Assembly (NCBI GenBank): GCA_964016885.1 | Contig: OZ024741.1 | Span: 30,380,001-30,444,000 of the forward strand | Length of the DNA: 64,000 nt | Direction of reading: 5' to 3' | Source of the DNA: Eledone cirrhosa | Lineage: Eukaryota | Shown here: positions 4,272 through 60,744 of the stretch, one piece after another | Position numbering within the stretch: position 1 is the stretch's first letter | Layout: the number at the start of each line of letters is the position of its first letter | Notes under the pieces: model-generated | Told to the model about the DNA's origin: nothing | Databases searched by the model: none | What the model saw: the letters and a program-made list of their open reading frames with translations, nothing else | Position numbers and translations under genes: made by a program

Positions 4272-4478
4272 ATTGGCAATATTATATGTCAGCTCAACGA
4301 TATGGAGCAGTTAATAGTATTAGTTATACCATTTATGGTTATGTAAATACAAAACATTATGCAGCTATAAGTATTTTACACACACCCTAAATAGTGGTAG
4401 GCAGTAATGTATTACTACCTTATTACCTGTAAGTTAAGTAGCTCAATGTAAAAACATCAGATGATTTACAGAGCAGTT

Positions 4479-5608
4479 ATATGAAATATAAGAATCAAAG
4501 AACTGTTCAAAACATTATTGTGCTTACAGCTGTTTCCTCCAAACCGAGGTTTGGATTCTTCGGAGCAATTTATTAATGCATGGACAGTTATATGACCTCC
4601 TTTTCAGCCGAGAGACATACCGATACATATTCAAACATTGATACATATTCAAACATTGTGGGTCAACATTCATTACAGAATTTAGAGTGGCAGTACATAC
4701 TTCGAGATTACATTTATATTAAGAGGTACAATCAAAGATCAAAAATACAGGTTAAAATACAACATGAAGATAAGTGGTTATATAGTGCAAATGTTATACG
4801 TGTGGCACGCATGTGCGTCTTGTTTATATAGTGTGGCAGAGAGATATGTGTGGTAGAGGCACTTAGGTAGGTAAACAAGAGTGTTAGGTTGGTAGATCTG
4901 GTGGAAAATTCTTTATATGATTGATATAGTCTGTGTGTGGAAAAATGTTATAAGCATTAAAAATAGTGCAAGCATTAAAAGTGTTAAAAGTATTGGAGAT
5001 GCACAGCGAAGGGATGTCAAGTATTTCATGTACTTCGGCATTTTCATGGTCAGGGGAGTGTATTTTTCGATTATATGCCCCTCACATAATCCACGACAAT
5101 CCGATATTGAGCGTTTGATAATCCAGTTAGAGATCGTAGTCTGGTGTTCTTTAGTTCAATACAGGAGGCTGTTACGTTTCGAGAAACGCCATTGAATACC
5201 ACCCGGAAGTGTGTGTGTGGCTAAGGGGAGTTAATGCATGCGGGGAGGTAACTCCGGGGTTTCTAAACCTAGCTATTAAAATGTGTCACAATATAGACCT
5301 TAATTTCTATGGTGATGCGCATCCTCCAAGAAAATTTTTAAAGCATAAAGTGTATTAACTATAGAGTAGTTTAATTAAGTTATGCTGCAGGTGCTCATAT
5401 TATTATGGTGGATTAACCCATCGTAAGGTGCCACAAATGGAAATTATAGATGATGAGCGAGGATTCTAAATTAATGATCTCTGTGGTTGTAGTCTACTCA
5501 TAGGACCAGGCGCGGTGATTGCAGGATTGCTTCAGGACCCAATGATCTCTGGTAAGTTCTGGGTCATCGCTTGCTACATTGGATGTCGAAAGATAATCAT
5601 CCCCAGGC
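4479..5608 (-). repeat. 5' pseudo-LTR of PLE
   Basis: Near-identical to 276-1385 and ends directly in (TA)n at 5609. Confidence 0.92.
4521..4567 (-). ncRNA. Minimal hammerhead ribozyme motif, second pLTR copy
   Basis: Identical to 318-364. Confidence 0.75.
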
Positions 5609-5609
5609 G

Positions 5610-5685
<76 letters not shown>

Positions 5686-5695
<10 letters not shown>

Positions 5696-6516
5696 ACGTA
5701 CATACATATATGTATACAGACGTACAGTAGTATGTATATATATATACATACATGCACACATATATATATGTACATATGGATTCACCGAAAGTTTATTATA
5801 ATGCTCGATGTGTTTGTAAACAAACATCCCGAATTAAGCTGTGCAGCGTTTAGCAACCATCGTTGCCCTTTTGTTCAACACTGACAAAGGAACGATGTAC
5901 TAGTTTCAAGCTTATTAGCTATCATCAGCAACGTATACCTTCCTGCCAGATAGTTGAACGTCTGAAAGTATATACTTTCCTTATGCATATTAACGGCTGA
6001 GCATAAGGAAAGTATATACCAACCATCTGGCAGGAAGGTATACGTTGCTGACGATAGCTAACAACTTGAAACTAGTACAGTGTTCCTTTGTCAGTGTTGA
6101 ACAAAAGAACAAGGATGGTTGCTAGACACTGTACGGCTTAATTCAGGATGTTTGTTGACAAACACACCGAGCATTATAATAAATGTTCGGTGAATCCATA
6201 CGTACATATATATATATATGTGTGCATGTATGTATATATATATACATACTACTGTACGTCTGTATACATATATGTATGTACGTATACATACTTATATTTA
6301 AGTAACAGCCGTACTAAGAGTGAGAAATTAAATTTCGTTTCATTTTTTCCGTTTATCGTGTTCGGTACCCCGGCCGATTAACTCACTCGATATGCAAATT
6401 AGGCTGCTCAGCCGTTAATATGCATAAGAAAAGTATATACTTTCAGACGTTCAACCATCTGGCAGGAAGGTATACGTAGCTGACGATATCTAATAAGCTT
6501 GAAACTAGTACATTGA
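5686..6516. mobile_element. Family R430: fold-back multimer of a ~430-bp non-coding HHR repeat (retrozyme-like)
   Basis: Inverted arm 5686-6002, then a direct arm with period ~432 (AACCATCTGG at 6021 and 6453). HHR motifs at 5892-5934(-), 6042-6083(+) and 6474-6516(+). Confidence 0.8.
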
Positions 6517-6612: not shown

Positions 6613-6647
<35 letters not shown>

Positions 6648-6650
<3 letters not shown>

Positions 6651-6810
6651 AACGAGTAGGACCCCGACGGCTGAGCTCAAGCCGTTTCGACCAGCTTGAG
6701 CTCAGCAGTCGGGGTCCTACTCGTTCCTATTACCCACTCTACTACCATAAGTATTGAGTACTTTGGTGCGTTATGGTCCACCTGGTCCCTTACCACATTT
6801 CCTTCGTTAT
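6648..6810. repeat. Hairpin plus tail mini-element derived from a PLE pLTR end
   Basis: ~36-bp inverted repeat at 6648-6730. The tail matches 53257-53395 and 39875-39995, the latter lying just upstream of a PLE ORF start. Confidence 0.65.
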
Positions 6811-6824
6811 ATATATATATATAA

Positions 6825-7244: not shown

Positions 7245-7247
<3 letters not shown>

Positions 7248-7390
7248 TATGTAAGTATGTATGTATACGTACATACATATATGTATACAGACGTACAGTA
7301 GCAGGCCGCTCAGTTTGTTTACAAACGAACAAAGCGGGGTTATAATAAGCGTCCGCTAAACTGATGCATGCATATATGTATGTTTACCTG

Positions 7391-7458
<68 letters not shown>

Positions 7459-7565
7459 TGCTACTGTACGTCTGTATACATATATGTATGTACGTATACA
7501 TACATACTTACATTTAAGTAAGTGCCATACTAGGAGTGAGAAATGAAATTTCGTTTTCATTTTAT
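7245..7565. repeat. Internally deleted R430 fold-back
   Basis: Same terminal sequences as the other R430 loci, with the HHR region missing. Confidence 0.65.
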
Positions 7566-7572
7566 TTCAACT

Positions 7573-20770: not shown

Positions 20771-21017
20771 CTATATACATACACACATATATATATATGT
20801 ATATATATATTTGTATGTATATATGTATATATATATGTATATATATATATATATATATATTGGAATAAATGCTCTGAAATAGCGATATATATGTGAATAT
20901 AGACATAGAATATTCGAAAATATTCTGTATGTTTATAATAAACATTTTGAAGACCTAATCGCTATAGAATAGAATACGTCACGTATTACAATTAGATTCT
21001 CGATAAAAGCAAGGGAA

Positions 21018-21060
21018 GTAATCTACGCGTTTCATTCTTGTTAGAAATCATCAGGACTAC
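21018..21060 (-). ncRNA. Type I hammerhead ribozyme in R310 (inverted arm)
   Basis: Exact reverse complement of 21605-21647. Confidence 0.88.
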
Positions 21061-21327
21061 ATATCCAGTGCTTTTATCGAGAATGACACAGCTAGAGACT
21101 TATAGAATACTTAGCTGTGTACAGGAACTGATTTGAAAGAGCGGTTGCCGGTCCGGCAGAAATTAGAAATTGGAATAAATGCTCTGAAATAGCGATATAT
21201 ATGTGAATATAGACATAGAATATTCGAAAATATTCTGTATGTTTATAATAAACATTTTGAAGACCTAATCGCTATAAAATAGAATACGTCACGTATTACA
21301 ATTAGATTCTCGATAAAAGCAAGGGAA

Positions 21328-21370
21328 GTAATCTACGCGTTTCATTCTTGTTAGAAATCATCAGGACTAC
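21328..21370 (-). ncRNA. Type I hammerhead ribozyme in R310 (inverted arm)
   Basis: Exact reverse complement of 21605-21647. Confidence 0.88.
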
Positions 21371-21604
21371 ATATCCAGTGCTTTTATCGAGAATGACACA
21401 GCTAGAGACTTATAGAATACTTAGCTTTACAGGAACTAATTTGAAAGAGCGGTTGCCGGTCCGGCAGAAATTAGAAATTGGAATAAATGCTCTGAAATAG
21501 CGATTCTGCCGGACCGGCAACCGCTCTTTCAAATCAGTTCCTGTACACAGCTAAGTATTCTATAAGTCTCTAGCTGTGTCATTCTCGATAAAAGCACTGG
21601 ATAT

Positions 21605-21647
21605 GTAGTCCTGATGATTTCTAACAAGAATGAAACGCGTAGATTAC
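21605..21647 (+). ncRNA. Type I hammerhead ribozyme in R310
   Basis: GUAGUC-CUGAUGA-U UUCU AACA AGAA U-GAAAC GC GUA-GAUUAC. The core is intact and stem III is palindromic. Stem I is extended by the 16-bp helix 21581-21596/21654-21669. Confidence 0.88.
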
Positions 21648-21914
21648 TTCCCTTGCTTTTATCGAGAATCTAATTGTAATACGTGACGTATTCTATTCTA
21701 TAGCGATTAGGTCTTCAAAATGTTTATTATAAACATACAGAATATTTTCGAATATTCTATGTCTATATTCACATATATATCGCTATTTCAGAGCATTTAT
21801 TCCAATTTCTAATTTCTGCCGGACCGGCAACCGCTCTTTCAAATCAGTTCCTGTACACAGCTAAGTATTCTATAAGTCTCTAGCTGTGTCATTCTCGATA
21901 AAAGCACTGGATAT

Positions 21915-21957
21915 GTAGTCCTGATGATTTCTAACAAGAATGAAACGCGTAGATTAC
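21915..21957 (+). ncRNA. Type I hammerhead ribozyme in R310
   Basis: Identical to 21605-21647. Confidence 0.88.
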
Positions 21958-22224
21958 TTCCCTTGCTTTTATCGAGAATCTAATTGTAATACGTGACGTA
22001 TTCTATTCTATAGCGATTAGGTCTTCAAAATGTTTATTATAAACATACAGAATATTTTCGAATATTCTATGTCTATATTCACATATATATCGCTATTTCA
22101 GAGCATTTATTCCAATTTCTAATTTCTGCCGGACCGGCAACCGCTCTTTCAAATCAGTTCCTGTACACAGCTAAGTATTCTATAAGTCTCTAGCTGTGTC
22201 ATTCTCGATAAAAGCACTGGATAT

Positions 22225-22267
22225 GTAGTCCTGATGATTTCTAACAAGAATGAAACGCGTAGATTAC
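22225..22267 (+). ncRNA. Type I hammerhead ribozyme in R310
   Basis: Identical to 21605-21647. Confidence 0.88.
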
Positions 22268-22699
22268 TTCCCTTGCTTTTATCGAGAATCTAATTGTAAT
22301 ACGTGACGTATTCTATTCTATAGCGATTAGGTCTTCAAAATGTTTATTATAAACATACAGAATATTTTCGAATATTCTATGTCTATATTCACATATATAT
22401 ATATATATTTATAATATATTTATATATACATATATATATAAAGCCAAACAAGTGAAGAAGTAAAACAAAACAAAATAAAGAGGAACATATTAAATACCAA
22501 AATGGATATTATAAAACTAACCAAATGGAAAATAAAACATTTGACCTGGAAAAATTCCAGTCATTCAACTGTACAACTAGATGTAACCATGGATATAGTC
22601 TACGTATGTTGTGGCTGATAAAGCCGGTTAATGGGATGAAATGTAACTCTCTGCTATGAATGTTGGGAATAAATCATTATAGACTTTTCAAGAACATCT

Positions 22700-25792: not shown

Positions 25793-25901
25793 ATATATAT
25801 ATATATATATAGTAATAATAAATTTGAAGACTAAAATCTAAAGAGGGTTCGATAATGATAGGATAAATATATAGCCAATATATAAGAACCGTACAGCAAA
25901 T

Positions 25902-27912
25902 TTTATTAAAATAACAGATTAAAGTTTAAGCAAAGAATAGCTGATTTCACCCTTGACGGGATCTTCTGAAACTTAAAAGTCAATCTGTGAACGCAGAAGT
26001 GAATATTTCAAAAAAACGTTGCAACCGAAGGAAGACGATACTTTGGTTCGTGGAAACGTTCCCTGACAAAGAACCGAAAAAAACGAAGATAATACGTCAT
26101 TATGTTGAACGGTGAGAACAATTACGCGCAAAGACAAAACCACGTAAATGGTATAACTGAAGTCGTAGACTAAAATTCTATCTAGGAAATCGAATGATTC
26201 TCGGCTTCAAAGTAAGAATAAAGTAATTAAATACAGAGGTAATCGAAATTAAATATATACATACACGCATCCATAAACGTACATACACAAGCATATGCGA
26301 AAACACTCGCCATGGGTATACAAATACAAGCACGTACACAAAAAGAAAAGAAGAGAAAAACACAAACCTGCACGCCCATACAGAACCCACACAACGCCTG
26401 TACCTGCACACATACGAACGTATACACCAAATACACATAAACTATATATAAAATAAATATATATATATGTGTGTGTGCGCGCGTGTATACATATAATTAA
26501 AAGAACGTATATAAATAAATAAATAAATACGTATATAACGCGCGCACACACATACCTGCATGTAAAACACGTATGTTCGCAGACGTACGTCAACCAAATC
26601 ACAAAGTACACAAATACACACACCCTACATACGTATGAACCCGCATACTCACACAGACGCAAAACTCACGTATATACATAACCAAATGCACATGTACCAG
26701 AATATATAATATATTATATACACCATAACATATACAAGCAAATATACGTACGAGAACGTATACGTACTTTCACGAAACATACAGGTAAAATATACTTACC
26801 TATACAGATAAGTAATGGTATAAACATAACATATACTTAGGTACCACATCAAGACGTAAATATCCGCGTATAGTTCGTGCTATCCGTTATGGTATAATGT
26901 GGGGCTGTAATACAGGAAAATGTTGTGCAATTTATGTTTACAAGCCGAAATTGCCTCAGATTTTTTGTTTAAGATGTGGTCTTTGGCGCAGAGTATTTCC
27001 AGGGCCTCAGCGGCGCAGAGGTCACATGGTCTTTTATTTCCGTTATACGATCTAGCCCTAGCTATGATCTTCCAGTGTAACTTATATTGGGTGTGGTTGT
27101 CTTTTAGACTCCAGATATAAGCTGACAGTGACGTCATATTCATTCTTAAAGGGTTAAGAAAAGAATGGGTATGCATGTAAAGCCGCTGCTTGAAACTATT
27201 GGCGGTTAACCCTATGTAGGCCCTACGGGACGTGGGTGTTTCAACCTTACATTTATAGACAATGTTACTAGAGAGGCATTTCCCGGATAGGGGGCAGTCA
27301 ACCCGGTTCCTACAATTACAGTTAGTATTAGCTACAGGGTTGCACGTGTTCCTACGGCTAGGTATTTTAGCTAAGTTTGAAGCTGTGATGTTATGTGCAA
27401 GGTTAGGAGTCGTACAGTAAGAAATTTTAATGGTATTTCTATTAAAATTTTACTATATTTATGTGATGGGGGGAAATGCTTCGTAATAAGGGAGAGAAAG
27501 ATCTTAGCTAATGGTGTGGCCACCTCCATATTATATGGTGGGTTATACCATATAATGCGTCGGGATCTATTTTTCCTAGGTCTATTCTCGTACTCTGTAT
27601 ATGCTATCTTATTGACGAATCCACTCCGAGCAAGAGCTTCATTGTAATATGTGAAATGGTCGTTGAAAATATGCTCGTTTGTAGATAGACGTGAAAGTCT
27701 CAAAGAAACGTTTCTTACTAGGTTCTTGGTTATGCTGGCAGGATGGTTGGAATGCTTACTTAGGTGATTAAGCGTATCATTCGGCCTTCTATACGGGTAT
27801 TGTAAGCCATTCGACAAATTGAGGGTAACGTCGAGGTAAGTAACGACCGAAAGGTTAGCCTCAACCTGTATGGAGAGGTTGAAGCCTTTAAAGAAGGCTG
27901 TGAGTTCTTTTC
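25902..27912 (-). mobile_element. 5'-truncated PLE (RT C-terminus, linker, GIY-YIG, 3' UTR/pLTR)
   Basis: YLDVTLNL..YRRPND..SNHP, WYNPPY, CNCRNRVDCPLSGKC, YIGLT, KSEAISACKH. Frameshifted. Confidence 0.88.
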
Positions 27913-28024
27913 TATATATATATAAAAGGAAAGATCGACTTTCGTCAAATCGGGCCGAGGAAACAATGTTTCCATTGGTCTTTCCAATTGCTAATACTAT
28001 CTATCCGTCGCAATTCCAGGTAGA

Positions 28025-28141
28025 AGGAGCAACGTGAAATAAAGTGTCTTACTCAAGGACATAACGCATCGCCCGGTCCGGGAATCGAACTCACAACCAT
28101 ACGATTGGGAATCCAATTCTTTAACCACTCAGCCACACGCC
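28025..28141 (-). mobile_element. tRNA-derived SINE, family B (head)
   Basis: Minus strand has A box TGGCTGAGTGG and B box GAGTTCGATTCC, then TCCTTGAGTAAGACACTTTATTTCAC. Confidence 0.8.
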
Positions 28142-28169
28142 TACATACATATATATATATATAAGTGTG

Positions 28170-28455
28170 GGGGGAGGGGTAGGTGGCCTAGTGGTAAGGG
28201 TTTGGGACTTATGATCATAATGTCGTAGGTTCGAGTCCTGGATTGCGTGTGGTGTTCTTGAGCAAAACACTTCATTTCACGTTGCTCCAGTATACTCAGC
28301 TGAAATGAGTACCAACAATAGATGCGGGTTTAACCCTGCGATGGACTGGCGTCCTGTTCAGGGAGAGTCTTGTATTTTCTGTCGATTCACGCCATGAAAC
28401 CGGATCACGATAAGCACAGGCTAAATAAGCCTTCTGGCTTAAGACAGACTTTAGA
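28170..28455 (+). mobile_element. tRNA-derived SINE, family B
   Basis: A box TGGCCTAGTGG, B box GGTTCGAGTCC, body TCTTGAGCAAAACACTTCATTTCAC...CCTGCGATGGACTGGCGTCC. Confidence 0.85.
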
Positions 28456-28467
28456 CATCTATATATA

Positions 28468-28825
28468 TTTATTAAAATAACAGATTAAAGTTTAAACAAA
28501 GAATCGCTGCTTTCAGCCTTAACGGGATCTTCTAAAACTAACAAAGTCAATCTGTAAACGCAGAAGTGGATATTTTAAAAAACGTTGCAACCGGAGGAAG
28601 ACAGGAAGACGATACTTTGGTTCGTGGAAACGTTCCCTGGCAAAAAACGGGAAAAAACGAATATAATACGTCATTAATAGGAGCGGTGAAAAACAATTAC
28701 GCAGAAAGACAGAACCACGTTTATGGTATAAAAGAGGTCGTAGACTAATGTTCTCTTAGGTGGTGCATAGAGACGTTCTCTGGCAATGAACGAAAAAAAC
28801 GAAGATAATACGTCATATGTGAAGC

Positions 28826-33539: not shown

Positions 33540-34150
33540 ATAAATGTAAGTATGTATACGTACATACATATATGTATACATACGTCCAGTAGTATGTATA
33601 TATATATATATACATCCATGCACGCATTTTTTTATATATATATGTACGTATGGGTTTACCGAACATTTATTATAATGTTGTAAACAAACAGCCCGAATTA
33701 AGCCGTACAGTGTTCGGCAACCATCGTTGCCCTTGTGTTCAACACTGACAAAGGAACGATGAACTAGTTTCAAGCTTATTAGCTATCGTCAGCATCGTAT
33801 ACCTTCCTGTCAGATGATTGAACGTTTGAAAGTATATATCTGACAGGAAGATATACGATGCTGACGATAGCTAATATGCTTGAAACTAGTTCATCGTTCC
33901 TTTGAACAAAAGGGCGACGGTGGTTGCCGAACATTGTACGGCTTAATTCGGGCTGTTTGTTTACAAACAAACCAAACATTATAATAAATGTTCGGTAAAC
34001 TCATACGTACATATATATATGTGTGCATGTATGTATATATACATATGTACATACTACTGTACGTCTGTATACATATATGTATGTACGTATACATACTTAC
34101 ATTTAAGTATCAGCCGTACTAAGAGTGAGAAATGAAATTTTATTTCATTC
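33540..34150. mobile_element. R430 fold-back
   Basis: Palindromic about ~33835. HHRs at 33756-33798(-) and 33855-33897(+) have a perfect stem I (ACGAUG/CAUCGU) and a GUU site. Confidence 0.8.
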
Positions 34151-34153
34151 TTT

Positions 34154-39429: not shown

Positions 39430-41420
39430 TGTGTCTAATGCACCAGGATGTTTTTGATACTTTCATACTCCGTTATTTTGCTACGGTGTTGTTGTTGGAA
39501 TCGGTTGTGTCTGGGTTTGAATTTTATACCCTTGACCAGTTGGAAGAGGTCTTTCTCGAAGGGTGAGAGCAGAGGGTTCGATGGGGGCGGATTTGTAGGT
39601 ATTGAATCCGTATCTCTCCTTGGTGTCGAATCCTGGTTGTCGCGGTATCTATTGGAGAAGAATGTTCTCCATCGCAATCCTTTCGCAAACAGGTCGATTT
39701 TTTGCGTGAGCATCCGAAGGTAAAGTTTTCTTTGGGGAACTGGGATGTCTTTGTGGAGAAGTCGAAAGTGCGTTTTCGCATAGTAGGTATTATGAAGAAA
39801 CTGGAGCTTGCTGGAAAAATCGGGATATGGCGTGGTAGGGTCGGAAAGTGCTCTACTACAGAGGTAGGAGCTAGATAACGAAGGAAGTGGGGTATGGAAC
39901 CATGTGGACCATAGTACTCAATACTTAGGGTAGTTGAGTTGGGTAATAGGAAATTGTTCAAGATCCCGATGGCAGAACTCAAGCCGACGGCTATTTCTGG
40001 ACTAAATTAGATTTTTAGCGTGGTAATAAATAACCGAACTTTTGAAGGGGTAATTCCATATATGGGAAGATTGTTGTTGTCAAAAGGATTGGTCAACATT
40101 TATTGTAATCACAATCAAATCTTTCATGGTGGTGGGTGGCTGAACTTGCCTGTATAACAATGAGGGAGTGGGTGGAGCCGGTCATACGTTGAAAGTGAAT
40201 TCTATACAGCAAATTGTAAGGAGTGTGAATGAAATTATGCTAGCTAGAAAGCAGGCAAAAAAAGAATTCTGCAGGAATCCGGGAGTGGGAAGTTATAGAA
40301 TTAAGAAATTAAAAAGTTAATAAATTGAAATTAAAAAATTAAAAAACAATAAATAAAAATAATATTATAATATCAAATAATAAAAAATAATAAAAAAATC
40401 TAGAGTCTAAAACAGCTGCTATATTGTTAGCCTTTATTGCGTTTTCGGCCAATGCTATACTGAATATTTTTCGTGGCAGTACTGAGGCTACAAAAGCCCG
40501 ATGGGCTGCCTCAGGGTAAGCGAAAGAGGAAACAGGAAGAAGAGAGGGAATGGAAGAAAGTGAGAAGAAGAGATAATGGGAAAAAAAAGTACATCTGCCT
40601 ATGTATGCTGGGGTTTCTCCTATCTTCAAGCGGGGAAAAGAAGGATCTTACAGCCATTGTCTACCCACCCGCGTCATGAGGGTGTTTGAAGGCGAGGTAA
40701 GTCCTATGCAATCGGTATTTACATGCGGTTACAAGTTCGTCTTTTTTGTGTAGGAGTTGGTCCTTTGTAAACAGCATTTGTATTGTTTTCTCCGAGCATA
40801 AGTTACACGGACGGCGTCCTCCTGTGCAGGGGTTAGACCAGGAAAGTAAGCTCCAAGTAAGATGTTATGTGATGTTATTTTCTTGGAGTTCCCAGATGTG
40901 GCCCGAAAAGGTAGAGGCATGTCGCCGGGCCGGGTTTCTGAACGTATGTCGGTGTTGGTAGATCCGGGTATTAAGGTCACAAGCAGTTAATCCTATATAT
41001 GTTGGAGTTTTACGTTCTCGGCCTCTGTTGTTGAAGGGGCACACAGATCTATCAGGGCAGTTACACCTCCTGGTCGGCTCTCCACTAATGTCTAGGTTGT
41101 TTTTTTCCATAGGAGTTGAGTTTGTTGTTGTTTGGGAGGCGATGTTTTGTGCGAAATTAGGTGTGGTGCTGTAGGAGAGTTTGGTAGTGTTTTTGTTGAT
41201 TATGTTGTGGTAGCGTTGTTGTGGTGGGAAGTGTTTTTCGAGGAGCCCCAAGAAGATTTTCCCGATTGGTGTTGCAACCTCGGCATTCTGGGGAGGGTTG
41301 AACCACGTTACGTGGCGTGAGCAGCGGCGTCGCCTTCTGGTTCCGTTAGAGGAAGCTGGGTAAAAGGATATTTCCTCCCGAAAGCCGCTTCGCTTGAGGG
41401 CCGGGTTGTAATAAGGTCCA
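39430..41420 (-). mobile_element. Partial tandem PLE: EN/3' part (41420-40000) then the start of an ORF (39780-39435)
   Basis: WFNPP..IGKIFL, CNCPDRSVCP and YIGLT, then DFSTK..LRWRTFF..FEKDL, homologous to 3717-4271. Confidence 0.8.
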
Positions 41421-43149: not shown

Positions 43150-43862
43150 TGTAAGTATGTATACGTACATACATATATGTATACAGACGCACAGTAGTAT
43201 GCACATACACACATACATGCACACATATATACATGTACGTATGGATTTACCGAGCATTTATTATAATGCTCGGTTTGTTTGTAAACAAACATCCCGAATT
43301 AAGCCGTACAGTGTTTAGCAACTATCGTTGCCCTCTTGTTCAACACCGATAAAGGAACGATGTACTAGTTTCAAGCTTATTAGCTATCCTCAGTACCACA
43401 TACCTTCCTGCCAGATGATTGAACGTCTGAAAGTATATACTTTCCTTATGCACATTAACGGCTGAGCAGCCTAATTTGCATATCGAGTGAGTTAATCGGC
43501 CGGGTGCACCGAAAACGATAAATGGAAAAAAATGAAATCATCTGGCAGGAAGTTATACAGTGCTGACGATAGCTAATAAGCTTGAAACTAGTACATCGTT
43601 CCTTTGTCGGTGTTAAACAAGAGAGCAACCATGGTTGCTAAACACTGTACGGCTTAATTCGGAATGTTTATTTACAAACAAACCGAGTATTATAATAAAT
43701 GCTCGGTAAATCCATACGTACATATATATATGTGTGCATGTATGGATGTGCATACTACTGTGCGTCTGTATACCTATATGTATGTACGTATACATACTTA
43801 TATTTAAGTAACATCCGTACTAGGAGTGAGAAATGAAATTTTGTTACATTTTTTCCATTTAT
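43150..43862. mobile_element. R430 fold-back
   Basis: Inversion near 43538. HHR motifs at 43357-43399(-) and 43557-43599(+). Confidence 0.8.
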
Positions 43863-48044: not shown

Positions 48045-48779
48045 GTGTGTGTATGTGTGTGTGTATGTGGGTGCGTGTGTGTGTATGTGTGTGTGTATGT
48101 GTGTGTGTGTGTACGTAAATATGTTCCGGTATGTGCATATATGAGAAATATCGATAATATCTCTAGCTTTAATGTTTAAGAAATGTCGTCTGCGATGCTA
48201 TTAATGTATATGACAATAGTAAAGCAGTGAATTGAAATGATTTGTAGAGCATCAGAGACGTTGGTTAGCATTACTTGCGTATGCTCTGTTACTTTCTGGG
48301 TTCAAATTCCTGTCGTACGCATTCTTGTCTCTCTTGATTTCTCGCGCAGTTTATATCGATATATTAAATCCATAGTCAGGTTTTTCGTCGAACTGAATCG
48401 CTTAAATTAGCCGCTGTAAAAAATCAATGCGACAATATTTAGTTTTATGTAAATGTTTAAATTCATTATAATAATTTATATAATTTGAACCGCAGTTCAA
48501 AATTTATATTACTCAACACATAGATTTGTCCCTATGTTAAATTTTAACATAGCACTATGCTTAGTTTGAGCCTCGGTTAGACTTCAATATTATGCAATGT
48601 GATGTCATGACTCTATATAGGAAATATACTACAAAATGAATGACTCAACCACATACGGATATATATATATAAAAATATATATATATATATTTATTAAAAT
48701 ATTATATTTATTAAATAATATAATATTAAAATATTATATTTATTAAATAATATAATATTAAAATATTATATTATTATTA

Positions 48780-50932
48780 TTGTTCTTTGAGTCTCAGTCA
48801 TTGATGTTTGTTAACTGGGAAGTTTGTTGAAATGAATAGCCACTACCTGCAGCCTCAGATATTCAGGACGTATCGGAGGGTTCTTGCTGTTCCCAGCAAG
48901 CATGCCTTTTGAAGCGTTCCAAAAAGCGTGGCGTGGCCAATTTTCTTTAACCATCCCTGGAAACTTTTTGAGATAGTACCTAGTGCGCCTATGACAATCG
49001 GGACCACTTTGAATTCATGGCAGTTCCAAATCCTTTTTACCTCCCACTTTAAGTCCTGGTATCGGTGAATTTTCTCCCTCTCCTTCTCTTGCACTCTCGT
49101 GTCGAATGGGCAGGCTACATCCACAATCAGGCACGATCTTTTTTCCTTGTCCAAAACCACCAGGTCAGGTCTATTTTGTTCCAGTTGTTTGTCCTTCTGT
49201 ATCCTAAAATCCCACAGCACCTTCACCTGATCGTTTTCTATCAGCAACTCTGGCTTATGCTCATACCACTTCTCAGAATGTGGTAAATTGTTTACTTTGC
49301 ATAGGTGCCAGTGGATCACCCTGCTCATCACATCATGTCCCCAGCACTTATAGTGAGTTTGGGCTAGGTGTTTACACTCGGATACAATGTGAGCCACAGT
49401 CTCCTCTCTCTCTCCACAGATCCTGCACAGTGAGCTATCCTCCTCCTTGTAAATATGGTGTTTCAACCACTTCGTTTTGAGGGCTTGCTCTTGCGCAGCC
49501 ATTAGCATTCCTTCTGTAGCCTTTTTAAGGTCTCCTCTTTTCAACCAGTTCTATGTCTGCGGATCTCTGAATTCAGTTTTCTCAAAGAAGGTACTATGAA
49601 GGGATTTTTCATGAAGGCTGCTCTTTCTCCTTGTTGTTATTTCCTTCTTGGACATCCCCTGGACTATTGTCCTCTCCTTCAGTACAATTCTGAGCATTGG
49701 CTCCTTACCATCAGTCACGTATTTGTGTAGGTTGTTTTTCTCCATCTGAACACAGTCCTCTATGTTGATAAGACCTCTTCCACTTTCAGATCTCCTTAAG
49801 TAGAGTCTATCGACATCACTCCTCTTGTGGAACATGTTGTAGATAGTCAATAGCTTCCTAGTCTTCCTATCCATTTCTTTCTGTTCAGCAACATTCCATC
49901 TCAGAATTCCCGCACTGTACCTAATAATAGACACAGCTCGGAAATTTACTGCACTTATGGCATTCCTACTGTTCAGATGTGACTTTAATACGCTCCTTAT
50001 TCTCCGAATGTATTCAGATCTTATCAATTCCTTAATTTATTTTGTTCTTGATGTCATCAGCCTCCAGAACACCTAAATATTTGTATCCTTCTTCAGTGTC
50101 AATTTCTTTATCATCTCACCTGTTGGTACATGGATTCCGTTGCTTCTGCTCAATTTACCCCTATTCATCACAAGGACTCCACACTTACTAATACCAAAAT
50201 GCATACATATATCATTGCTGAAAATAGGACAGTGTCAACAAGCACATCCAACTCCTTCTCACTCTTCCCAAAGTGCTTAAGATCGTCCATGAAGTGGAGG
50301 TGATTGATGGTAAGCTATCCCTTTCCCAACTTGCATCCTGCTCTCACATTTCGCAGTATAATGGTCAGGGGCATCAGGGCAAGGACAAACAACGGAGGGG
50401 ACAGACTATCTCCCTGGAAGATACCTTTCTTGATCGTCACGCCTCCCAAGGATTCTCCAGCTGATGTTAACTCTGTTTTCCAGGACTTCATACTTTTCCC
50501 CAACAACTGTCTGATGTTATCTGCCACCTTGAAGATCTCTAGGCTTTTGGTGATCCAAGAATGAGGCACCATGTCAAATGCCTTTTTGTAGTCTATCCAT
50601 CCCATGGCAAGACCAGTGTGTCTCCTCTTGCAATTCCTCATTACCATCTTATCAATAAGTAACTGCTCCTTTGTACCACGGGACTTCTTTCGGCATCCTT
50701 TCTGTTCGCCCGGTAACAAGTTGTTTGTGTGGAGGTGATGGTAGATTTCCTCAGACATAATGCTTGTCAACAGTTTCCACATTACGGACAGACATGTGAT
50801 AGGTCTATAGATGGTAACATCTTTACCCTTGGTTCGGTCTTTCATTACCAGAACTGAGGTATCTTTTGTCAACCACTCTGGTACCTCACCTGACATGAAG
50901 CAGTCATTGAACGTGGTTGTTTGTTTCGGGTG
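48780..50932 (-). mobile_element. R4/Dong-like RLE retrotransposon, family A, 5'-truncated and disrupted
   Basis: RT ([27 protein letters not shown]), CRIC..ETVAH..C knuckle and RPDL..VDV RLE. The tail lies in (TAA)n at ~48770. Confidence 0.92.
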
Positions 50933-52085
50933 AGACACATACAACACTTCATCCACCGTATGCAGTTCTCTGGTTACAATCAGAGAGATAGAATCAGAGT
51001 TTATAGAGGAGCCAGAACCAAATGGGAAAAAATGGTAAATAATGACACAAATGGGACCTGCCCCTTGTATAGGAGCAACTTTTGGAATAGAATAGAAAAA
51101 ACTAGGAATAAGGCTAATAGAATAAACTCATGGTATGATAGCAATAAATACCAGAGTGTAATGTTCATCGATACAACCCCTAGAGGTGAATTAGCTTACA
51201 AATTTAGAAGGGCCCTAGATGAACATAAACTCAATATTAAGATAGTAGAAAGACCAGGTACCTACGTAAAAAACACTTATTAGCAAGACATACCCTTTCC
51301 AAAGAACCCCCTGTATAGATAAGAAATGTATAACTTGTAAAATAAGCCGCCATATTAACTGTAAAACTAGAAATGTAGTGTATAGCATAAGGTGTACTGA
51401 AGGACAATGTAGAGACAAAAATATAGTGTACATAGGTGAGACAGCTCGTAGTGTAGGGGAACGGATAAATGAACACTGGTGAGACCTTCAAGATAGTAAA
51501 GAATCATCTGTACTCTACCAACATGCTAAAATAGAACATAAGGGTAAATTAGAGCACATAGAAATAAAAATAGAATCTACACACAGAAAAGACGCAATGT
51601 TTAGACAAATCACAGAGGCAATAAACATAAAAGAATTACAACCAAAATTAAATAGAAAATATGAGTGGAACAGCAACATCACAACTTACAATTAAGGAAA
51701 AAATGAAAACACACACACACATAGAACAAACAACCAACCGGTAACATGTAATTAAACACATAAATAAACAAATATAAACACACACAGACACCCGGATGTG
51801 GTGCATGCGCAGACTGAGCACACAACACACACACAGAAACAAAATGGCGTAGGACAGAACAAAGGAGAGACACATAAACAAAGAAAAGAATCCCCAGTCA
51901 CTGAAGAGGTCACAGAATGTGTGACGAAAGAAGTTTGACACTATATAAACAACTATCTGGTTGTGGAACCAAACAACCAACCAGAAATTTATAAATTCCT
52001 AAATTTATAAATTTATTATAATAAATTGAAGTGATAGCAACTGGTGCGTGTGTTTCTTATTGGCAACATGACCCTCCCAAAGTAT
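50933..52085 (+). mobile_element. PLE 3' fragment of a different clade (thumb, linker, GIY-YIG, 3' UTR)
   Basis: MQFSGY, PLYRS, ERPG, then C..CITC..C..RNVVYSIRC..YIGETARS..ER..EH..LNRKYEW. Ends at (TA)n. Its terminus resembles 14720-14762. Confidence 0.85.
51897..51939 (+). ncRNA. HHR motif in PLE 3' UTR
   Basis: GUCA-CUGAAGA-G GUCACA GAAUG UGUGAC-GAAA GAAGUU-UGAC. Stem III is mismatched. Confidence 0.6.
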
Positions 52086-52496: not shown

Positions 52497-52536
52497 TATA
52501 AGTATGTATACGTACATACATATATGTATACATACG

Positions 52537-52572
<36 letters not shown>

Positions 52573-53212
52573 CATACATGCACACATATATTTAAAAAAC
52601 AAACATCCAGAATTAAGCCGTACAGTGTCTAGCAACCATCGTTGCTCGTTTGTTCAACACTGACAAAAGACCGCTGTACTAGTTTCGAGCTTATTAGCTA
52701 TCGTCATATATGTATGTACGTATACATACTTATATTTAAGTAGCAGCCGTACTAAGAGTGAGAAATGAAATGTCGTTTCATTTTTCAGTTTATCATTTTC
52801 GGTACCCCGGCCGATTAACTCACTCGATATGCAAATTAGGCTGCTCAGCCGTTAATATGCATAAGGAAAGTATATACTTTCAGACGTTCAACCATCTGGC
52901 AGGAAGGTATACGTTGCTGACGATAGCTAATAAGCTTGAAACTAGTACAGCGTTCCTTTGTCAGTGTTGAACAAAGAGCAACAATGGTTGCTAGACACTA
53001 CGGCTTAATTCGGGATGTCTGTTTACAAACACACCGAGCATTATAATAAATGTTCGGTGAATCCATACGTACATATATATATGTGTGCATGTATGTATAT
53101 ATATATACATACTACCGTACGTCTGTATACATATATGTATGTACGTATACATACTTATATTTAAATAACAGCCGTAATAAGAGTGAGAAATGAAATTTCG
53201 TTCAATTTTTCC

Positions 53213-53214
<2 letters not shown>
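52497..53214. mobile_element. R430 fold-back containing one complete monomer (period 425)
   Basis: GAGTGAGAAATGAAAT occurs at 52756 and 53181. Inversion near 52705. Confidence 0.82.
52911..52953 (+). ncRNA. Minimal type I HHR in R430
   Basis: ACGUUG-CUGACGA-U AGCU AAUA AGCU U-GAAAC UA GUA-CAGCGU, with palindromic stem III (ACUAGU). Confidence 0.85.
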
Positions 53215-53256
<42 letters not shown>

Positions 53257-53258
<2 letters not shown>

Positions 53259-53395
53259 CGGAGGAAATGTGGTGATGAACCAGGTGGACCATAACGCACC
53301 AAAGTACTCAATACTTAGGGTAGTAGAGTGGGTAATAGGAACGAGTAGGACCCCGACGGCTTGAGCTCAGCCGTCGGGGTCCTACTTGTTCCTAT
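53257..53395. repeat. Inverted copy of the 6648-6810 hairpin plus tail mini-element
   Basis: Reverse-complement match to 6648-6810. Confidence 0.7.
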
Positions 53396-53561
53396 ATATA
53401 TATATATTAGTAAATGAGGTTTTTTTCCAAAATGAAAAAAAACGAGATGTCCTACAGGAGTGAAAGTATCAAGAAAAAAAATGAAATCGAAAATGCAACT
53501 GGAGTCTTTTTAAAATACTCTTAAAAAGACTCCAGTTGCAATTTCGATTTTATCTTTTTTC

Positions 53562-53605
<44 letters not shown>

Positions 53606-54676
53606 TATATATATAGATATATATATAAAACAAAATTCTAGCCTTGAGCTTATATCAGAGATTAATATTTTAGATATATGGAATTGAGCCTATTTTAGAC
53701 ATTAATAAGACACAATGTATAGCCTTGAGCCTCTGTACGAACAATTATTACACAATATATGGCAGCATATGTAAAAGTGTTAATTAAATGCCTTTAGTAT
53801 TGAATTAGTACATTTTCATAGATAATTAGCTAAACACGTTTGATCATTTGTTTATTATGAAAATCAGTATTACACAATTTAAATTAAAATATTGTTGTGC
53901 AATTTTAATATATATTTCGATAGTCACGAATTAAAAGATATGATCCAGGGATGACGAAATATTCTTATATTGTATTGTATCAATGTTACATTCTTGATTT
54001 CATATCTCACCATACAACTGATATCTTTAGGTACTACTTTTATATTTGTGAATGGGATAACTTGTGCATATATAGCAGAGATAAGCCCTCAATTAGTACT
54101 TTTGTTAGCATTTAATGTAGGTAAGTATGCGGCCCTGCTCAACATTTCCTGCCTTTTGGTAAAAGAAAATACAGAAGGATCAGTTAATTGGGTTTTTATC
54201 CCATTCACATGAGCCATTCTTACCTCTCTCACCCACCTTTCAACAAACTAGCTGGAAGGCAGTACTTCCTTCTCCACTCTGATTTTTCTTTTCAGGTGAA
54301 CCCTGAAAAGGTTCATGAGGGCGTCACCGAAGAGGAAAGTGCCCGTCTTCAACCCTTTAAGACACGTTCACCATACGACCTCTTTTACCATGGCCTAGGC
54401 TAATAAAATCTGCCTGCCCCTGCTCGTTAAAAGAGGGCGGCAGGGTAATCTTCACGATGGATTCAGCTGATAGCCGGATTCGTCCTACACGTGACAGCAG
54501 ATTTTCGACATAAACCCACATGTCAGCGATGCTCAGATAGTAGTAGTAATAATAATGATTGTTACCCCAGTTCACTGATAGTGAACAGCTAACACTGTAA
54601 TGGATGTTCATCGCTAGAAACTGATGAAATGAACAACAACAACAACAATAATAACTACAATTATAATAATAATAAT

Positions 54677-54728
<52 letters not shown>

Positions 54729-54731
<3 letters not shown>

Positions 54732-56791
54732 GACCGAAGCAAGGGTAATGATGTTACCAACTATAGACCTATCACATGTCTGCCCGTAATGTGGAAACTG
54801 TTGACGAGCATTGTGTCTGAGGAAATCTACCATCACCTCCACACAAACAACTTGTTACCGGACGAACAGAAAGGATGCCGAAAGAAGTCACGTGGTACAA
54901 AGGACCAGTTGCTTATTGATAAGATGGTAATGGGGAATTGCAGGAGGAGACACACTGATCTTGCCATGGGATGGATAGACTACAGAAAGGCATTTGACAT
55001 GGTGCCTCATTCCTGGATCACCAAAAGCCTGGAGATCTTCAGGGTGGCAGATAACATCAGACAGTTGCTGGGCAGGAGTATGGGGTCCTGGGAGACAGAG
55101 TTGACATCAACTGGAGTATCCTTGGGAAGCGTGAAGATCAAGAGAGGTATCTTCCAGGGAGATAGTCTGTCCCCTCTGTTGTTTTTCCTTGCCCTGATGC
55201 CCCTGACCATTATACTGCGAAAAGTGAGAGCAGGATACAAGTTGGGAAAGGGAGAGCTTACCATCAATCACCTCCTCTTCATGGACGATCTTAAGCTCTT
55301 CGGGAAAAGTGAGAAGGAGTTGGATGTGCTTGTTGACACTGTCCGTATTTTCAGCAGTGATATATGTATGCAGTTTAGTATTGGTAAATGTGGAGTCATT
55401 GTGATGAGGAGGGGTAGGTTGAGCAGAAGTAACGGGATCCAGATACCAACAGGTGAGATGATAAAGGAAATTGACTCTGAGGAAGGATACAAGTATTTGG
55501 GCGTTCTGGAGGCTGATGGCATAAAGAACAAAAAAATGAATGAATTGTTAAGAACTGAATACATTCGGAGAGTAAGGAGCGTATTGAAGTCACATCTGAA
55601 CAGCAGAAATGCCATAAGCGCAGTAAATTCCCGAGCTGTGTCTATTATTAGGTACAGTGCGGGAATTCTGAGATGGAATGTTGCTGAACAAAAAGAAATG
55701 GATAGGAAGACTAGGAAGCTATTGACTATCTACAACATGTTCCACAAGAGGAGTGATGTCGATAGACTCTACCTAAGGAGATCTGAGGGTGGAAGAGGTC
55801 TTATCAGCATAGAGGACTGTGTTCAGATGGAGAAAAACAACCTATACAAATACGTGACCTATAGTAAGGAGCCAATGCTCAGAGCTGTACTGAAGAAGGG
55901 GACAGTAGGCCATGGGATATCCAAGGAGGAAATAACATCAAGGAGGAAGAGCAGCCTTAAGGGAAAATCCATTCATAGTACCTTCTTTGAGAAAACTGAA
56001 TTTAGAGATCCACAGACATGGAACTGGTTGAGAAGAGGAGACCTCAAAAAGGCTACAGAAGGAATGCTAATGGCTGCGCAGGAGCAGGCCCTCAAAACGA
56101 AGTGGTTGAAGCACCATATCTACAAGGAGGAGGCTAGCCCACTGTGCAGGATCTGTGGAGAGAGAGAGGAGACTGTGGCCCACATTGTGTCCGAGTGTAA
56201 ACACCTAGCCCAGACCCACTATAAGGGCTGGAGACACGATGTGATGGGCAGGGTGATCCACTGGCACCTGTGCAAAGTAAACAATCTACCACATTCTGAG
56301 AAGTGGTATGAGCATAGGCCAGAGGCGGTGATGGAGAACAGTCAGGTGAAGGTGCTGTGGGATTTTAGGATACAGACGGACAAAAAACTGGAACACAATA
56401 GACCTGACCTGGTGTTTGTGGACAAAGAAAAAAGATCGTGCCTGATCGTGGATGTGGCCTGCCCGTTCGACACGAGAGTGCAAGAGAAGGAGAGGGAGAA
56501 AATTAACCGATACCAGGACCTAAAGTGGGAGGTGAAAAGGATTTGGAACTGCCATGAAGTCAAAGTGATCCCGATTGTCATAGGCGCACTGGGGACTATC
56601 TCCAAAGGTTTCCAGGGATGGTTAAAGAAAATCGGCCTCTTCACGCTTTTTGGAACGCTTCAAAAGGCATGCTTGCTTGGAACGGCAAGAACCCTCCGAT
56701 ACGTCCTGAATATCTGAGGCTGCAGGTAGTGGCTTGATATTCAATCCAACGGACTTTCCAGTTAACCAACATCAATGACTGAGATTCAAGG
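54729..56791 (+). mobile_element. R4/Dong-like retrotransposon, family A, 5'-truncated
   Basis: Flanked by (TAA)n on both sides and homologous to 48780-50932. Confidence 0.93.
54789..56717 (+). CDS. RT - CCHC zinc knuckle - restriction-like endonuclease (open frame, N-terminus missing)
   Basis: 642 aa uninterrupted: [49 protein letters not shown]. Confidence 0.85.
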
Positions 56792-56829: not shown

Positions 56830-59800
56830 AAAGAAAACCCCGTGACCAAGAAATACCGGGATGGCGGCCGGCGGGGAATAGCCGTGTCTCTGGGGGAGAA
56901 CGACCCCTCTAGTTGACACTCGTTCTAGAAGTGGTAACACGAAATGATTACTCCTTGGCGGATAAGGATAAAACGCGACAAAATAAAGTAAATGTCTAAT
57001 GATAAAATCTCATACCAGATCGGCCGTCACCCGGGTAAAAAAGGGCCGCGTCCCTCAGAGAGGAACCAGACTATGGTTCAAACCTTCCCATCACTTCGGA
57101 GCTGGAGACCTCCCATAACCGGAATACTCCTACTGTTGGCCCTCCATGCTCACCACCAAGAAATCCCAAGAAAAAGAAAGAAAAATGATCAAGGGAAGAT
57201 AATAAAGAAGTCCTTGAGGCTTTCTACGCTGCCATGTACTACCCATCAAATACATCGAATACAGAACAGACATATATCAACTGGAAAAAGAAACATCCCG
57301 AAAACAGAGGCTATATTGACAGTAACAAACTAGCCAATATACGAAGAAATATTGTAAGAAAAAAGTTACTAACTGATATAGAAATTGATCAGATCAAGCT
57401 ATTAGCACAAAGTCAGCGAAGGGAAAATGAAACATGTGTCAGTCAAAACGAGGTAAACTGTAACACTTCGAATCCCAGGGTTGGGGCGGAATCACTGGCA
57501 ACAGAACAAATTAAAGAAAGGATCGAAAAAGTGGAGGGAGTGCATGCTCAAGATGAAACACCAAATGAAAATAATGAGATCGTAAATGATAAAGAAATGA
57601 ATGAGAATGAACTTGCCAACTTGAGAGATGAAATTATGATCGAATGGATGAAAATGAAAGAATCTGACATGGGGCAACGAGACACCCTCCCTAAGATCCA
57701 GAACTCCAAACAGAACCAAAAGATAATACACAAGACTAAGATAATTCTCAAAAACATTATCATCACAAACAAACTAAACATTACTGATTTAAATCATCTC
57801 TATTATGCATCGGCTAAAGTCACCACTCACTTATGTGGAGTGAAGATGAAAAAACAAAGGAATTCCCACAAGAAATCTACTTGGCAAGAGAACATCAATC
57901 GCCAAATAAACCTTCTCCGATCTGACATAGAAATTTTAACAAACTATAAAGTAGGTGAACATGTTAAACAAACTAAACTTAGAAAATTGAAAAAAAAGTA
58001 CAGTATAAAATCAACATGTGACATAGACATGCTGATAGAAATAATCAAGCAAAAAGTGTCGGCCAAAGCTTCTCGTATAAGGCGCTTTGAAAAACGATCT
58101 ATATTCTATAAGGACAATAATTTGTTAAAAAACAACCAAAGAAACTTCTACAGAAAAATTGGTAAGTCAACAATAACTGCTAAATCAATACCACCCAAGG
58201 AGGAAGTGCAAGAATTCTGGGAAAAGATCTGGGCCGAAGAAAAAGTTCATAACATACATGCCCCATGGATAGACAGACAAATGAAAGATACAGCTCACCT
58301 TGAGGAACAAACATGGGAAAATATAACAGTTGAACAGTTGCGCTTGGCTCTAAGAAAATCCAACAAATGGAAATCCCCAGGAAAAGACAAAATACAAAAC
58401 TTTTGGATAAATGCTTTCACAGTCTCATGAGCTGTTAGCCCAACTTTACAATGAAATAGTTAAGGAGCCAGAAAAGATACCTTCATGGCTAGTTAACGGC
58501 ATTACATTCCTGCTTCCGAAGAATGATGAGACAAACAATCCTAAAAATTACAGACCGATAACTTGCTTGACCACAATGTATAAAATTTTAACATCAGTCC
58601 TAACTGAATACACATATGACCACCTGATAACAAATGACCTATTTCCCATTGAGCAGAAAGGGTGTAAACGAGGCTCATATGGCTGTAAGGATCAGCTTCT
58701 GGTTAACAAAATGATACTGGAAGGTTGTCAAATAGACACAAACATCTATCGATTGCTTGGATAGATTATAAAAAAGCATTCGATAGTTTGCCACACAGTT
58801 GGATTGAAAAATGTTTAGAGATTTTCAAAATATCCCCCGTTGTCAGGAGGTTTTTGTCATTCAGTATGAAGACATGGAAAACGACACTCCTTTTGAATAG
58901 TGAAACAAAATCAATGGAAGCTGGAGAAGTTAATATTAATTGTGGAATTTTTCAGGGTGACTCTTTATCACCGCTTTTATTCTGCATCGCACTTATACCA
59001 TTAAATAAAATGCTCAATGAAACAAAACATGTATATAAAGTCTATGACAAAACCATTAATCACCTGTTCTACATGGATGACCTGAAACTATTTGCAAAAA
59101 AATGATGAACAATTGCCAGGGCTATTATCCACTGTGAAGCAGTTCAGTGATGACATTAAAATGGAGTTTGGACTAGATAAATGCGCCAAAGCAACGTTCA
59201 CCAGAGGAGAGCTGCTGAAGAGTTCAGACATTAATCTTGATCGGGGGAACGTGATAAGAGAACTTGATCAAGAAAAAACTCACAAATATCTAGGTGTTTG
59301 TGAAGGAGACAGAATCAAGCACTCGACAATGAGGGAAAGGATAAGGAAGGAATGTTACCGCAGAGTAAGAACAATCTTAAGAACGGAATTGAATGTAAGG
59401 AATAGGATCGATGCCATAAACACCCTTGCCATACCAGTAGTAATCTACAGTTACAATGTCATCAACTGGTCAAGCACAGAGATCTGTAGGCACGATACAA
59501 AAATTCGAAAATTCTTAACCATGCACAGATATAGATAGAATATATCTCCCTAGGAAAGAAGGAGGACGTGGGTTAATCCAGTTAGACATTGCGTTGAAAA
59601 CTGCAACAATTGGATTATCTACATATCTAAGAGAATCACATGATTGGATGATCAAACTCGTTTTGAAACACGAAAGCATCAAAAGATCATATTCCATTAC
59701 AAAAGATGCACAAAGATACAGTAATGGACTACAAATTTCAGAAGTCCCATTTACTGCTGAAATGGAAAACACAGAAAAAGCAAAGCAGGTAAAAGTAACT

Positions 59801-60744
59801 GCAAAGAAAGAACTGCTACAGAAACTGGCTAAGAAATGGCAAGAAAAGCCTCTGTATGGAAAATACCCAGAGCGGGCTAACAATCCTGATGTTGACAAAA
59901 CTTTAACCCATCAGTGGTTGGCATCCTCTGGACTGAAATCGGAGACTGAAGGGCTGATTAAATCGGCACAAGATCAGTGTCTGCCAACAAAAAATTACCA
60001 AGCCAACATAATAAAAAATGGGTGCAGCCCATTATGCCGTGTATGCAAAAAACAACCAGAGACCATTGACTATATAATTTCAATGTGCAGTCCTATAGCT
60101 CCAACCGAATACCTAAACAGGCATGACAGAGCTGCACAATACATACATTGGATAATGTGTAAGCATTTTGACCTGCCCCATCAAAAGAATTGGTGGGAGC
60201 ATCAACCACCTCCCATACTTGAAAAAGATCACATCTCAATCTTGTGGAACTTTAGCATCCAAGCAGACCGAAAAATAGATGCAAACAGACCTGATATAAT
60301 ATTGAAAGACTTTCAAAAGAGGGTATGCCTGCTAATTGATATGTCTGTTCCAATAGACAAGAATGTATCTATAAAAACATTTGAAAAATTGAGCAAGTAT
60401 AAGGACCTGGAGATAGAAATTGGAAAAATGTGGAAATTGAGAACTAAAACAATACCAGTGGTTGTAGGCGCTCTGGGAATGATACCTAAGGGGTCTAGTG
60501 ATTACTTATCACAAATCCCAGGAAACCCGCGTATAGGAGAAATACAAAAGATAATACTAATGGGAACTGCCCATATACTAAGGAAGATTCTGTCAATATA
60601 AGTACATCACAAGTCTAAACACTAAAGATGCATGTGTGAATATGTATGTTCTTTCTTGAACATGGCGGACCTTGTTGTCTCTTGAGGTCACTGGTTGCGA
60701 CTTGGTGATAACTCGTATGAACATAAAGCAAGATAAATGCAACT

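Follow-up and report, generated by a model that had tools for sequence, protein, structure and literature searches.

The 64-kb window of Eledone cirrhosa DNA analysed here (the whole stretch) carries at five places a repeat, R430, that folds back on itself within (TA)n and contains a predicted hammerhead ribozyme (HHR), raising the question of what kind of element it is and how its copies are inserted. R430 is very probably a non-coding non-LTR retrozyme with a predicted type I HHR, likely mobilised in trans by a Penelope-like element (PLE) that bears an endonuclease (EN+) and is probably of the Hydra type. This kind of retrozyme is already known, and R430 adds to it an insertion footprint and an intact candidate enzyme. 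Left unrecognised, it would be classed as simple repeat or MITE across about 0.6% of the 3-Gb genome.

R430 loci in the window and the genome

All five R430 loci were recovered by blastn at the positions originally claimed. The monomer period is 425 bp at 52497-53214 and 420-433 bp in other copies of the A, B and C subfamilies, and the predicted lack of coding capacity agrees with a longest ATG ORF of 63-68 aa in tripled monomers. The locus at 52497-53214 consists of an inverted arm joined head-to-head to 1.2 monomers, with (TA)n on both sides. The inverted left arm (52497..52706, minus strand) is 5'-truncated and has its 3' end at the so-called short site against (TA)n, while its 5' end (52706) lies inside the HHR core with C3 and U4 missing, which makes it a ninth, cut motif. 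The right arm of 1.2 monomers (52705..53214, plus strand) contains a direct repeat (52705-52793/53130-53218) with a period of 425, and abuts (TA)n at the long site, where it ends. The TA-rich internal rod of the monomer (53060..53158, plus strand) ends at the short-end site (after 53158), and is followed by the tail between the two fixed ends (53159..53214, plus strand; 61 nt in the reference monomer), which contains an A-rich/U-rich hairpin common to the sister family R467. Another hairpin common to R467, altered in one C-subfamily monomer, occupies 52829..52856 (plus strand) and starts with the octamer-like ATGCAAAT (52829-52836), which lies ~110 nt upstream of the predicted cut site and is kept in R467. 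An snRNA-type promoter has been reported for newt satellite 2 (PMC2220036), and the octamer as such a promoter element is a lead, since the motif also sits in a hairpin.

The two-armed insertion at 5683..6512 has a minus arm reaching to 6003 (short end), whose HHR at -5928 carries U·U in stem I, and a plus arm with two HHRs (6048 and 6480), its right end having lost 3 nt beyond the second cut site. A two-armed B-subfamily insertion at 33540..34152 (HHRs -33792 and +33861) and another two-armed insertion at 43152..43862 (HHRs -43393 and +43563, of the G·U stem I type and damaged) both have short and long ends. The copy at 7245-7565, described originally as deleted, is not internally deleted, being instead a 5'-truncated copy of the V subfamily (monomer length 450-590 bp) with 88% identity to it over 269 contiguous nt; it spans 7245..7570, has short and long ends and a 61-nt inverted arm, and its 5' truncation 70 nt past the cut site leaves it with no HHR. 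The claim that R430 is always a fold-back holds for all window loci and fails genome-wide, as both orientations were found in only 82 of 157 sampled insertions, a count from which very short arms escape. A short repeat with an internal palindrome repeatedly adjoins R430 in (TA)n (53258-53407, 6634-6823 and 39872-39990).

One exact 31-nt HHR motif matched the 3.0-Gb genome 24,328 times and its reversed control 0 times, which excludes chance. In total, 80 stretches of 10 kb on a fixed grid contained 11 R430 loci and 0.63% R430 sequence, from which ~41,000 loci are estimated genome-wide (95% interval 21,000-74,000). A second HHR pattern gave 5,567 matches, and those among the matches listed were mostly R467. 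Tandem arrays of up to ~8 units were found, in which monomer abuts monomer directly, with an HHR in each unit and no ORF. The main statistics rest on 428 aligned segments, 157 insertions and 140 loci, after 23 duplicate or overlapping loci and those holding only R467 or only PLE had been dropped. Many loci were chosen by similarity to three queries, so that subfamily proportions in the sample are not genome proportions; loci from the grid, the window and the pattern hits are referred to as unselected. Genome counts, ORFs and insertion ends bear out the predicted high copy number, non-coding status and retroelement-type footprint.

The predicted type I hammerhead

The eight complete CUGANGA..GAAA-CUAGUH motifs of the original prediction were all found (+6048, +6480, -5928, +33861, -33792, +43563, -43393 and +52917), with the variable N7 being C in six, U in one and G in one. 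Some of this variation may reflect CpG decay, as C7-G8 is a CpG, and U7 doubles as a marker of the V subfamily. In the right arm, the predicted type I HHR spans 52904..52958 on the plus strand with a predicted cut at 52947|52948, and is composed of an outer helix (52904-07/52955-58), stem I (52911-16/52948-53), the core (52917-23), helix II (52924-37, with a U·U base and a 6-nt loop), GAAA (52938-41) and the palindromic helix III ACUAGU (52941-46), all on the plus strand. R430 HHRs have the canonical type I architecture: stem I has 6 bp, with a bulge and a closing helix, helix II has 4 bp and carries a 6-nt loop, and helix III is a palindrome of 2 bp. Helix III is 97% paired, and a short palindromic helix III is the concept behind dimer-type HHRs (PMC4209133), a model that the predicted helix III of R430 fits.

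CUGANGA, GAA, A15.1-U16.1 and H17 are present in the eight window motifs, and each of 11 core positions is 97-100% constant in ~270 copies, part of them chosen by motif. In loci not chosen by motif, mismatches amounted to 22/1,980 in the core versus 698/32,391 in the flanks, and in grid and window loci to 2/187 versus 103/2,657. Between subfamily consensuses, 18-38 of 270 sites differ, none of them among the 11 core positions; a core mutating as freely as its flanks across copies, named originally as evidence against a ribozyme, is therefore not what the lineages display. Private mutations are nearly equal (2.0 per core site and 2.75 per flank site), as would be expected of copies that are dead after insertion, so the core comparison is meaningful only between lineages.

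The covariation claimed for stem I is thin within the window, where a single clean U·G copy stands beside two copies with A-U, both from one insertion, a U·U mismatch (5928) and copies that are damaged; genome-wide it is solid. The third pair of stem I is paired in 138 of 149 locus-level haplotypes (A-U 47, U·G 46, G·U 45), with U·U in 6 and neither A·G nor G·G among the 149. Across 124 distinct 61-mers, stem I is 96.4% paired, and over all HHR pairs 89.6% of cells pair, with two-sided changes in 12 of 16 pairs, versus 28-50% pairing in slid controls. These rows are 124 of 133 distinct 61-mers, nine truncated or out-of-register ones having been omitted, and include four of R467 and two of the 310-bp family R310; since most two-sided changes other than those at pairs 17/53 and 7/61 belong to these six rows, they represent few independent evolutionary events. 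Stem I covariation reaches across subfamilies and into R467, which is 70% identical to R430.

Helix II of R430 closes with U·U, and across the 124 rows this position is unpaired in 118, in place of the expected G10.1-C11.1 pair. The same U·U occurs at the helix II base of the axolotl HHR_Amex2, which cleaves, and does so better as a dimer (PMC7229834). The helix II base varies by lineage, with U·U in R430, C·A in one R430 lineage (sampled loci L031, L142, L175, L176 and L185) and G-C in R467. Rfam gave no HHR match at the gathering score or at E<=10, its sub-threshold miRNA matches lying only on the TA rod, and the isolated HHR fold was no more stable than shuffles (z -0.4). For circular R430 monomers, 63-71% of the bases are predicted to pair, with z between -4.1 and -11.2 relative to 25 shuffles, partly owing to the TA-rich rod; in this predicted fold, which is congruent with that of R467 at 70% identity, the two flanks of the monomer, 5' and 3', come together in a closing rod.

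Insertion footprint and a candidate Penelope-like partner

The 3' ends of R430 fall at two fixed sites, short and long, 61 nt apart, and the 5' ends are scattered. Among the 157 insertions, 76 are head-to-head, 0 are tail-to-tail alone, 75 are single-orientation and 6 are complex. By alignment, the 75 head-to-head insertions lying inside their locus comprise 52 with short and long ends, 2 with like ends and 21 with an end elsewhere, which puts the short and long combination at 52 of 54 two-ended fold-backs (p=8e-14). The same combination was found in 19/19 of the unselected loci, here those not chosen by blast, in 40/43 fold-backs by a motif-based end count, and in 6/6 two-ended insertions of R467. 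A looser motif classifier gave 19/24, with four of the five exceptions visibly continuing into the tail as mis-sorted long ends, and was replaced by the alignment-based ends. Of 105 ends called short, 91 are followed by (TA)n. With arms anywhere from 48 to 3180 bp long, fixed TIRs are ruled out, and the fixed TIR ends with TSDs that had been named as evidence for a DNA transposon did not appear, the ends being asymmetric and of the Penelope type. The automated TSD scan is uninformative within (TA)n; at L262, an R430 copy lies outside microsatellite, inside a PLE ORF, with a 9-bp duplication read by eye. At the same locus (305-3363), the PLE and part of the R430 insert also form an inverted arm, as if the passenger had been re-copied with the PLE.

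Ragged 5' ends, an inverted 5' copy, a one-sided tail and a microsatellite target, all traits of EN+ PLE insertions, are present in R430. Insertions of Hydra-clade EN+ PLEs carry an inverted 5'-truncated copy and a tail at one end (PMC8557442), and the Anolis element PAc showed both-strand cleavage and two internal reverse-transcription start sites in vitro, linked to the tail (PMC11167929). R430 resembles these PLEs in 5' truncation, partial tandems, the inverted copy on the 5' side, the one-end tail, the (TA)n targets and the two internal start sites, which for R430 are predicted (PMC8557442, PMC11167929). Different from EN+ PLEs, it has no ORF, and its HHR is canonical rather than minimal. 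The tail is 61 nt in R430 and ~87 nt in the local PLE, compared with 30-40 nt in the literature.

A young PLE family of the same genome, with copies ~97% alike, has a 709-aa ORF and keeps its frames fully open in 2 of 20 loci. Its insertions lie in (TA)n and show two ends of their own, ~87 nt apart, all 9 of its two-ended fold-backs in the 20 loci being short and long in (TA)n. The ORF carries RWR, DKT, CxCX5C, CxxC and CxH motifs, which are diagnostic of the Hydra clade (PMC8557442). Sequence searches of this ORF against Pfam and PDB returned no match, and the predicted protein is assigned to the Hydra clade from its motifs. A 5'-truncated copy lies in the window at 25812..28000 (minus strand) as a candidate driver not linked in cis. 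An HHR-like motif with A for U4 was observed in this PLE (window 25812-28820; L279 3753-5882). Another PLE of the window (276-5608), in which a pattern search found no canonical HHR, has a broken minus-strand RT/GIY-YIG ORF (1810-4310) between direct pLTRs of 1.1 kb that are 97% identical.

Comparison of R430 with two PLE families in full gave no blastn match. The original prediction had suggested looking for a copy joined to a PLE ORF, and no repeated junction emerged: the two candidates, L122 and L091, were rejected as ORF-pLTR links because each junction is unique among 40 scored candidates, in a search whose PLE queries came from one clade, so that a partner may have been missed. The ends at the L091 junction are short and short. 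There (1383-4800), a V-subfamily arm stands head-to-head with a 5'-truncated PLE, possibly a mixed-template insertion. PLE-like coding sequence stands upstream in 2 of 72 single-orientation insertions (L122 and L129). Other PLE families are present in the genome, and the young Hydra-type PLE, as it shares no sequence with R430, is a candidate partner only, not a proven one. Copy number, footprint, motif and covariation are observed, and spread by PLE priming is the likely explanation. For the spread of animal retrozymes, PLEs have so far been proposed from co-occurrence and pLTR similarity, and R430 contributes a PLE footprint with strong statistics. An intact PLE with that footprint exists in the same genome, and two R430 priming sites are predicted to the base, which makes the question of mobilisation directly testable.

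RNA template, alternatives and relatives

Of 428 segments, 272 run across the predicted cut site; among 133 5' truncations, none lies at the surrounding positions 147-163, and arm ends are not enriched there, with only two 3' ends nearby (at 150 and 156). These observations point to a circle or an uncut multimer as template. A first comparison of own-arm with other-arm distance gave a weak signal (0.058 against 0.069, p=0.03; for tandem copies p=0.3). Per polymorphic site, the difference is 0.041 between opposite arms and 0.028 between tandem neighbours, against 0.080 in random same-subfamily controls, and private alleles are held in common by 7/58 opposite-arm and 15/75 tandem pairs versus 6/709 control pairs. 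Differences at two or more shared polymorphisms occur in 24/58 opposite-arm and 24/75 tandem pairs, some in blocks of 5-11, with 105 differences observed against a rough expectation of 43, and at L258 two haplotypes alternate. Hypermutable sites or later gene conversion could be part of the cause, and with 24 of 58 arm pairs differing at two or more polymorphisms, one monomeric circle is not the general rule. Arms of mixed haplotype thus serve as a test of the single-circle model. Private A>G changes exceed T>C on the sense strand (79 versus 45, p=0.007), one of several spectra and not significant within any subfamily, which weakly supports an RNA stage.

For R430 as a PLE-mobilised retrozyme, the following course may be proposed. 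Multimeric R430 loci would be transcribed, two HHRs would pair via their palindromic helix III and excise unit RNAs, and some of these would be ligated to circles. The PLE protein would then cut both strands of (TA)n and prime cDNA from each end, one per internal RNA site, and the two cDNAs would be joined at their truncated ends into a fold-back. The template is expected to be longer than one linear unit, that is, a circle or an uncut multimer, and both arms would often derive from one molecule or close kin, with a substantial minority from a mixed multimer or a second molecule. A tentative extension, somewhat doubtful as it stands, is that the Hydra-type enzyme reads retrozyme RNA by shape rather than by pLTR sequence, loading template independently at each break end. 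If this were true, one insertion could join copies of two different RNA molecules, and fold-backs would both record the RNA pool and give retrozyme lineages a route by which to recombine.

The closest competitor, possible though not favoured, keeps PLE mobilisation and makes uncut linear read-through RNA of multimeric loci the only template, with another or minor role for the HHR and no circular intermediates. It would account for the tandem neighbours that differ at two or more shared polymorphic sites (24/75) and for the haplotype alternation at L258, and it agrees with the insertion of PAc in vitro, where HHR mutants caused no impairment and cleavage was dispensable (PMC11167929). The PAc result also counts against the favoured reading, as do the 8 of 9 Xenopus retrozyme dimers that did not cleave (10.64898/2026.07.22.740005). 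Against read-through RNA as the only template, core and stems persist in lineages that are 14-30% apart, the flanks of the monomer are predicted to pair into a closing rod, and some arrays are near-homogeneous, with private alleles in common well above the control. A more distant proposal, improbable on present evidence, takes R430 as the pLTR of an unsampled autonomous PLE and its copies as 5'-truncated debris of that element. Xenopus retrozymes do match PLE termini (10.64898/2026.07.22.740005), one R430 copy at L122 comes after a fragment of a PLE endonuclease and is oriented like it, and the PLE queries covered one clade and the genome searches 40 scored candidates; but the L122 junction is unique among the scored matches, L122 and L129 are the only single-orientation insertions among 72 with PLE-like coding sequence upstream, monomer-to-monomer arrays run up to ~8 units without an ORF, and the HHR is of the canonical retrozyme type, not the minimal PLE type.

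Inverted arms, fixed outer ends and TA flanks might also suggest a fold-back DNA transposon or MITE inserting in TA with the HHR as a passenger. This reading is very improbable and is largely refuted by the asymmetry of the ends (52/54), to which are added the arm lengths of 48-3180 bp, the head-to-tail multimers, the 75 single-orientation insertions, the 9-bp duplication outside microsatellite at L262 and G·U/A-U covariation of the RNA type. Equally remote is a SINE-like element copied by the microsatellite-targeting LINEs of the window. LINE RT ORFs (PF00078, zf-RVT) do lie at 48764-51127, 54633-56717 and 57189-60601, in putatively R4/Dong-like elements, but these end in (AAT)n/(TAA)n. LINE priming leaves a single fixed 3' end, and LINE inversions arise without duplication of the 3' end. 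Self-blast of the window found neither a 3' end common to R430 and a LINE nor two-end fold-backs of a LINE, and ARAGORN found 0 tRNA genes, although a degenerate tRNA head could escape it. R430 is not a MITE, and within the scope of these searches it is neither an autonomous PLE nor a tRNA-SINE.

By its testable features, R430 is, and by analogy would work like, a metazoan non-LTR retrozyme. It shares with axolotl Rtz353/HHR_Amex2 (PMC7229834) a non-coding unit of 150-450 bp, a canonical type I HHR in tandem copies, the U·U at the helix II base, a weak helix III, tens of thousands of motifs and a highly paired predicted circle. R430 is mostly dispersed, 1-3 units at a time, with two fixed ends and inverted arms, features that the consulted text of PMC7229834 does not describe; expression and cleavage were shown for the axolotl retrozyme (PMC7229834) and are predicted for R430. 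Mobilisation of retrozymes by PLEs has been proposed (PMC7229834; 10.64898/2026.07.22.740005), and the retrozymes of the latter study likewise occur as monomers, dimers and multimers genome-wide; the evidence there is co-occurrence and pLTR homology, while for R430, in which no pLTR homology was found, it is the footprint. In the literature consulted, no report was found of two-armed tailed retrozyme insertions or of cephalopod retrozymes; subscription journals and the supplements of retrozyme papers may hold such data.

R467, 70% identical to R430, has the same HHR architecture, follows the same end rule and has a predicted fold congruent with that of R430, from which it differs in the G-C at the helix II base. 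Its two-armed arrays at G000:C1:30831845-30840563 reach 20 units, with a period of exactly 468 bp. R430 had been called unrelated to the 310-bp family of the window, which is correct for the monomer bodies, as they do not align and only short matches occur in the HHR region, but the HHRs of both families have one architecture. Units of this family form a two-armed array in (TA)n at 20859-22400, and share with R430 the U·U helix II base, a UAAYAA loop and the palindromic helix III. In the grid sample (L031-L110, 800 kb), at least 6 other recurrent HHR motif families were observed, several of them as opposed pairs.
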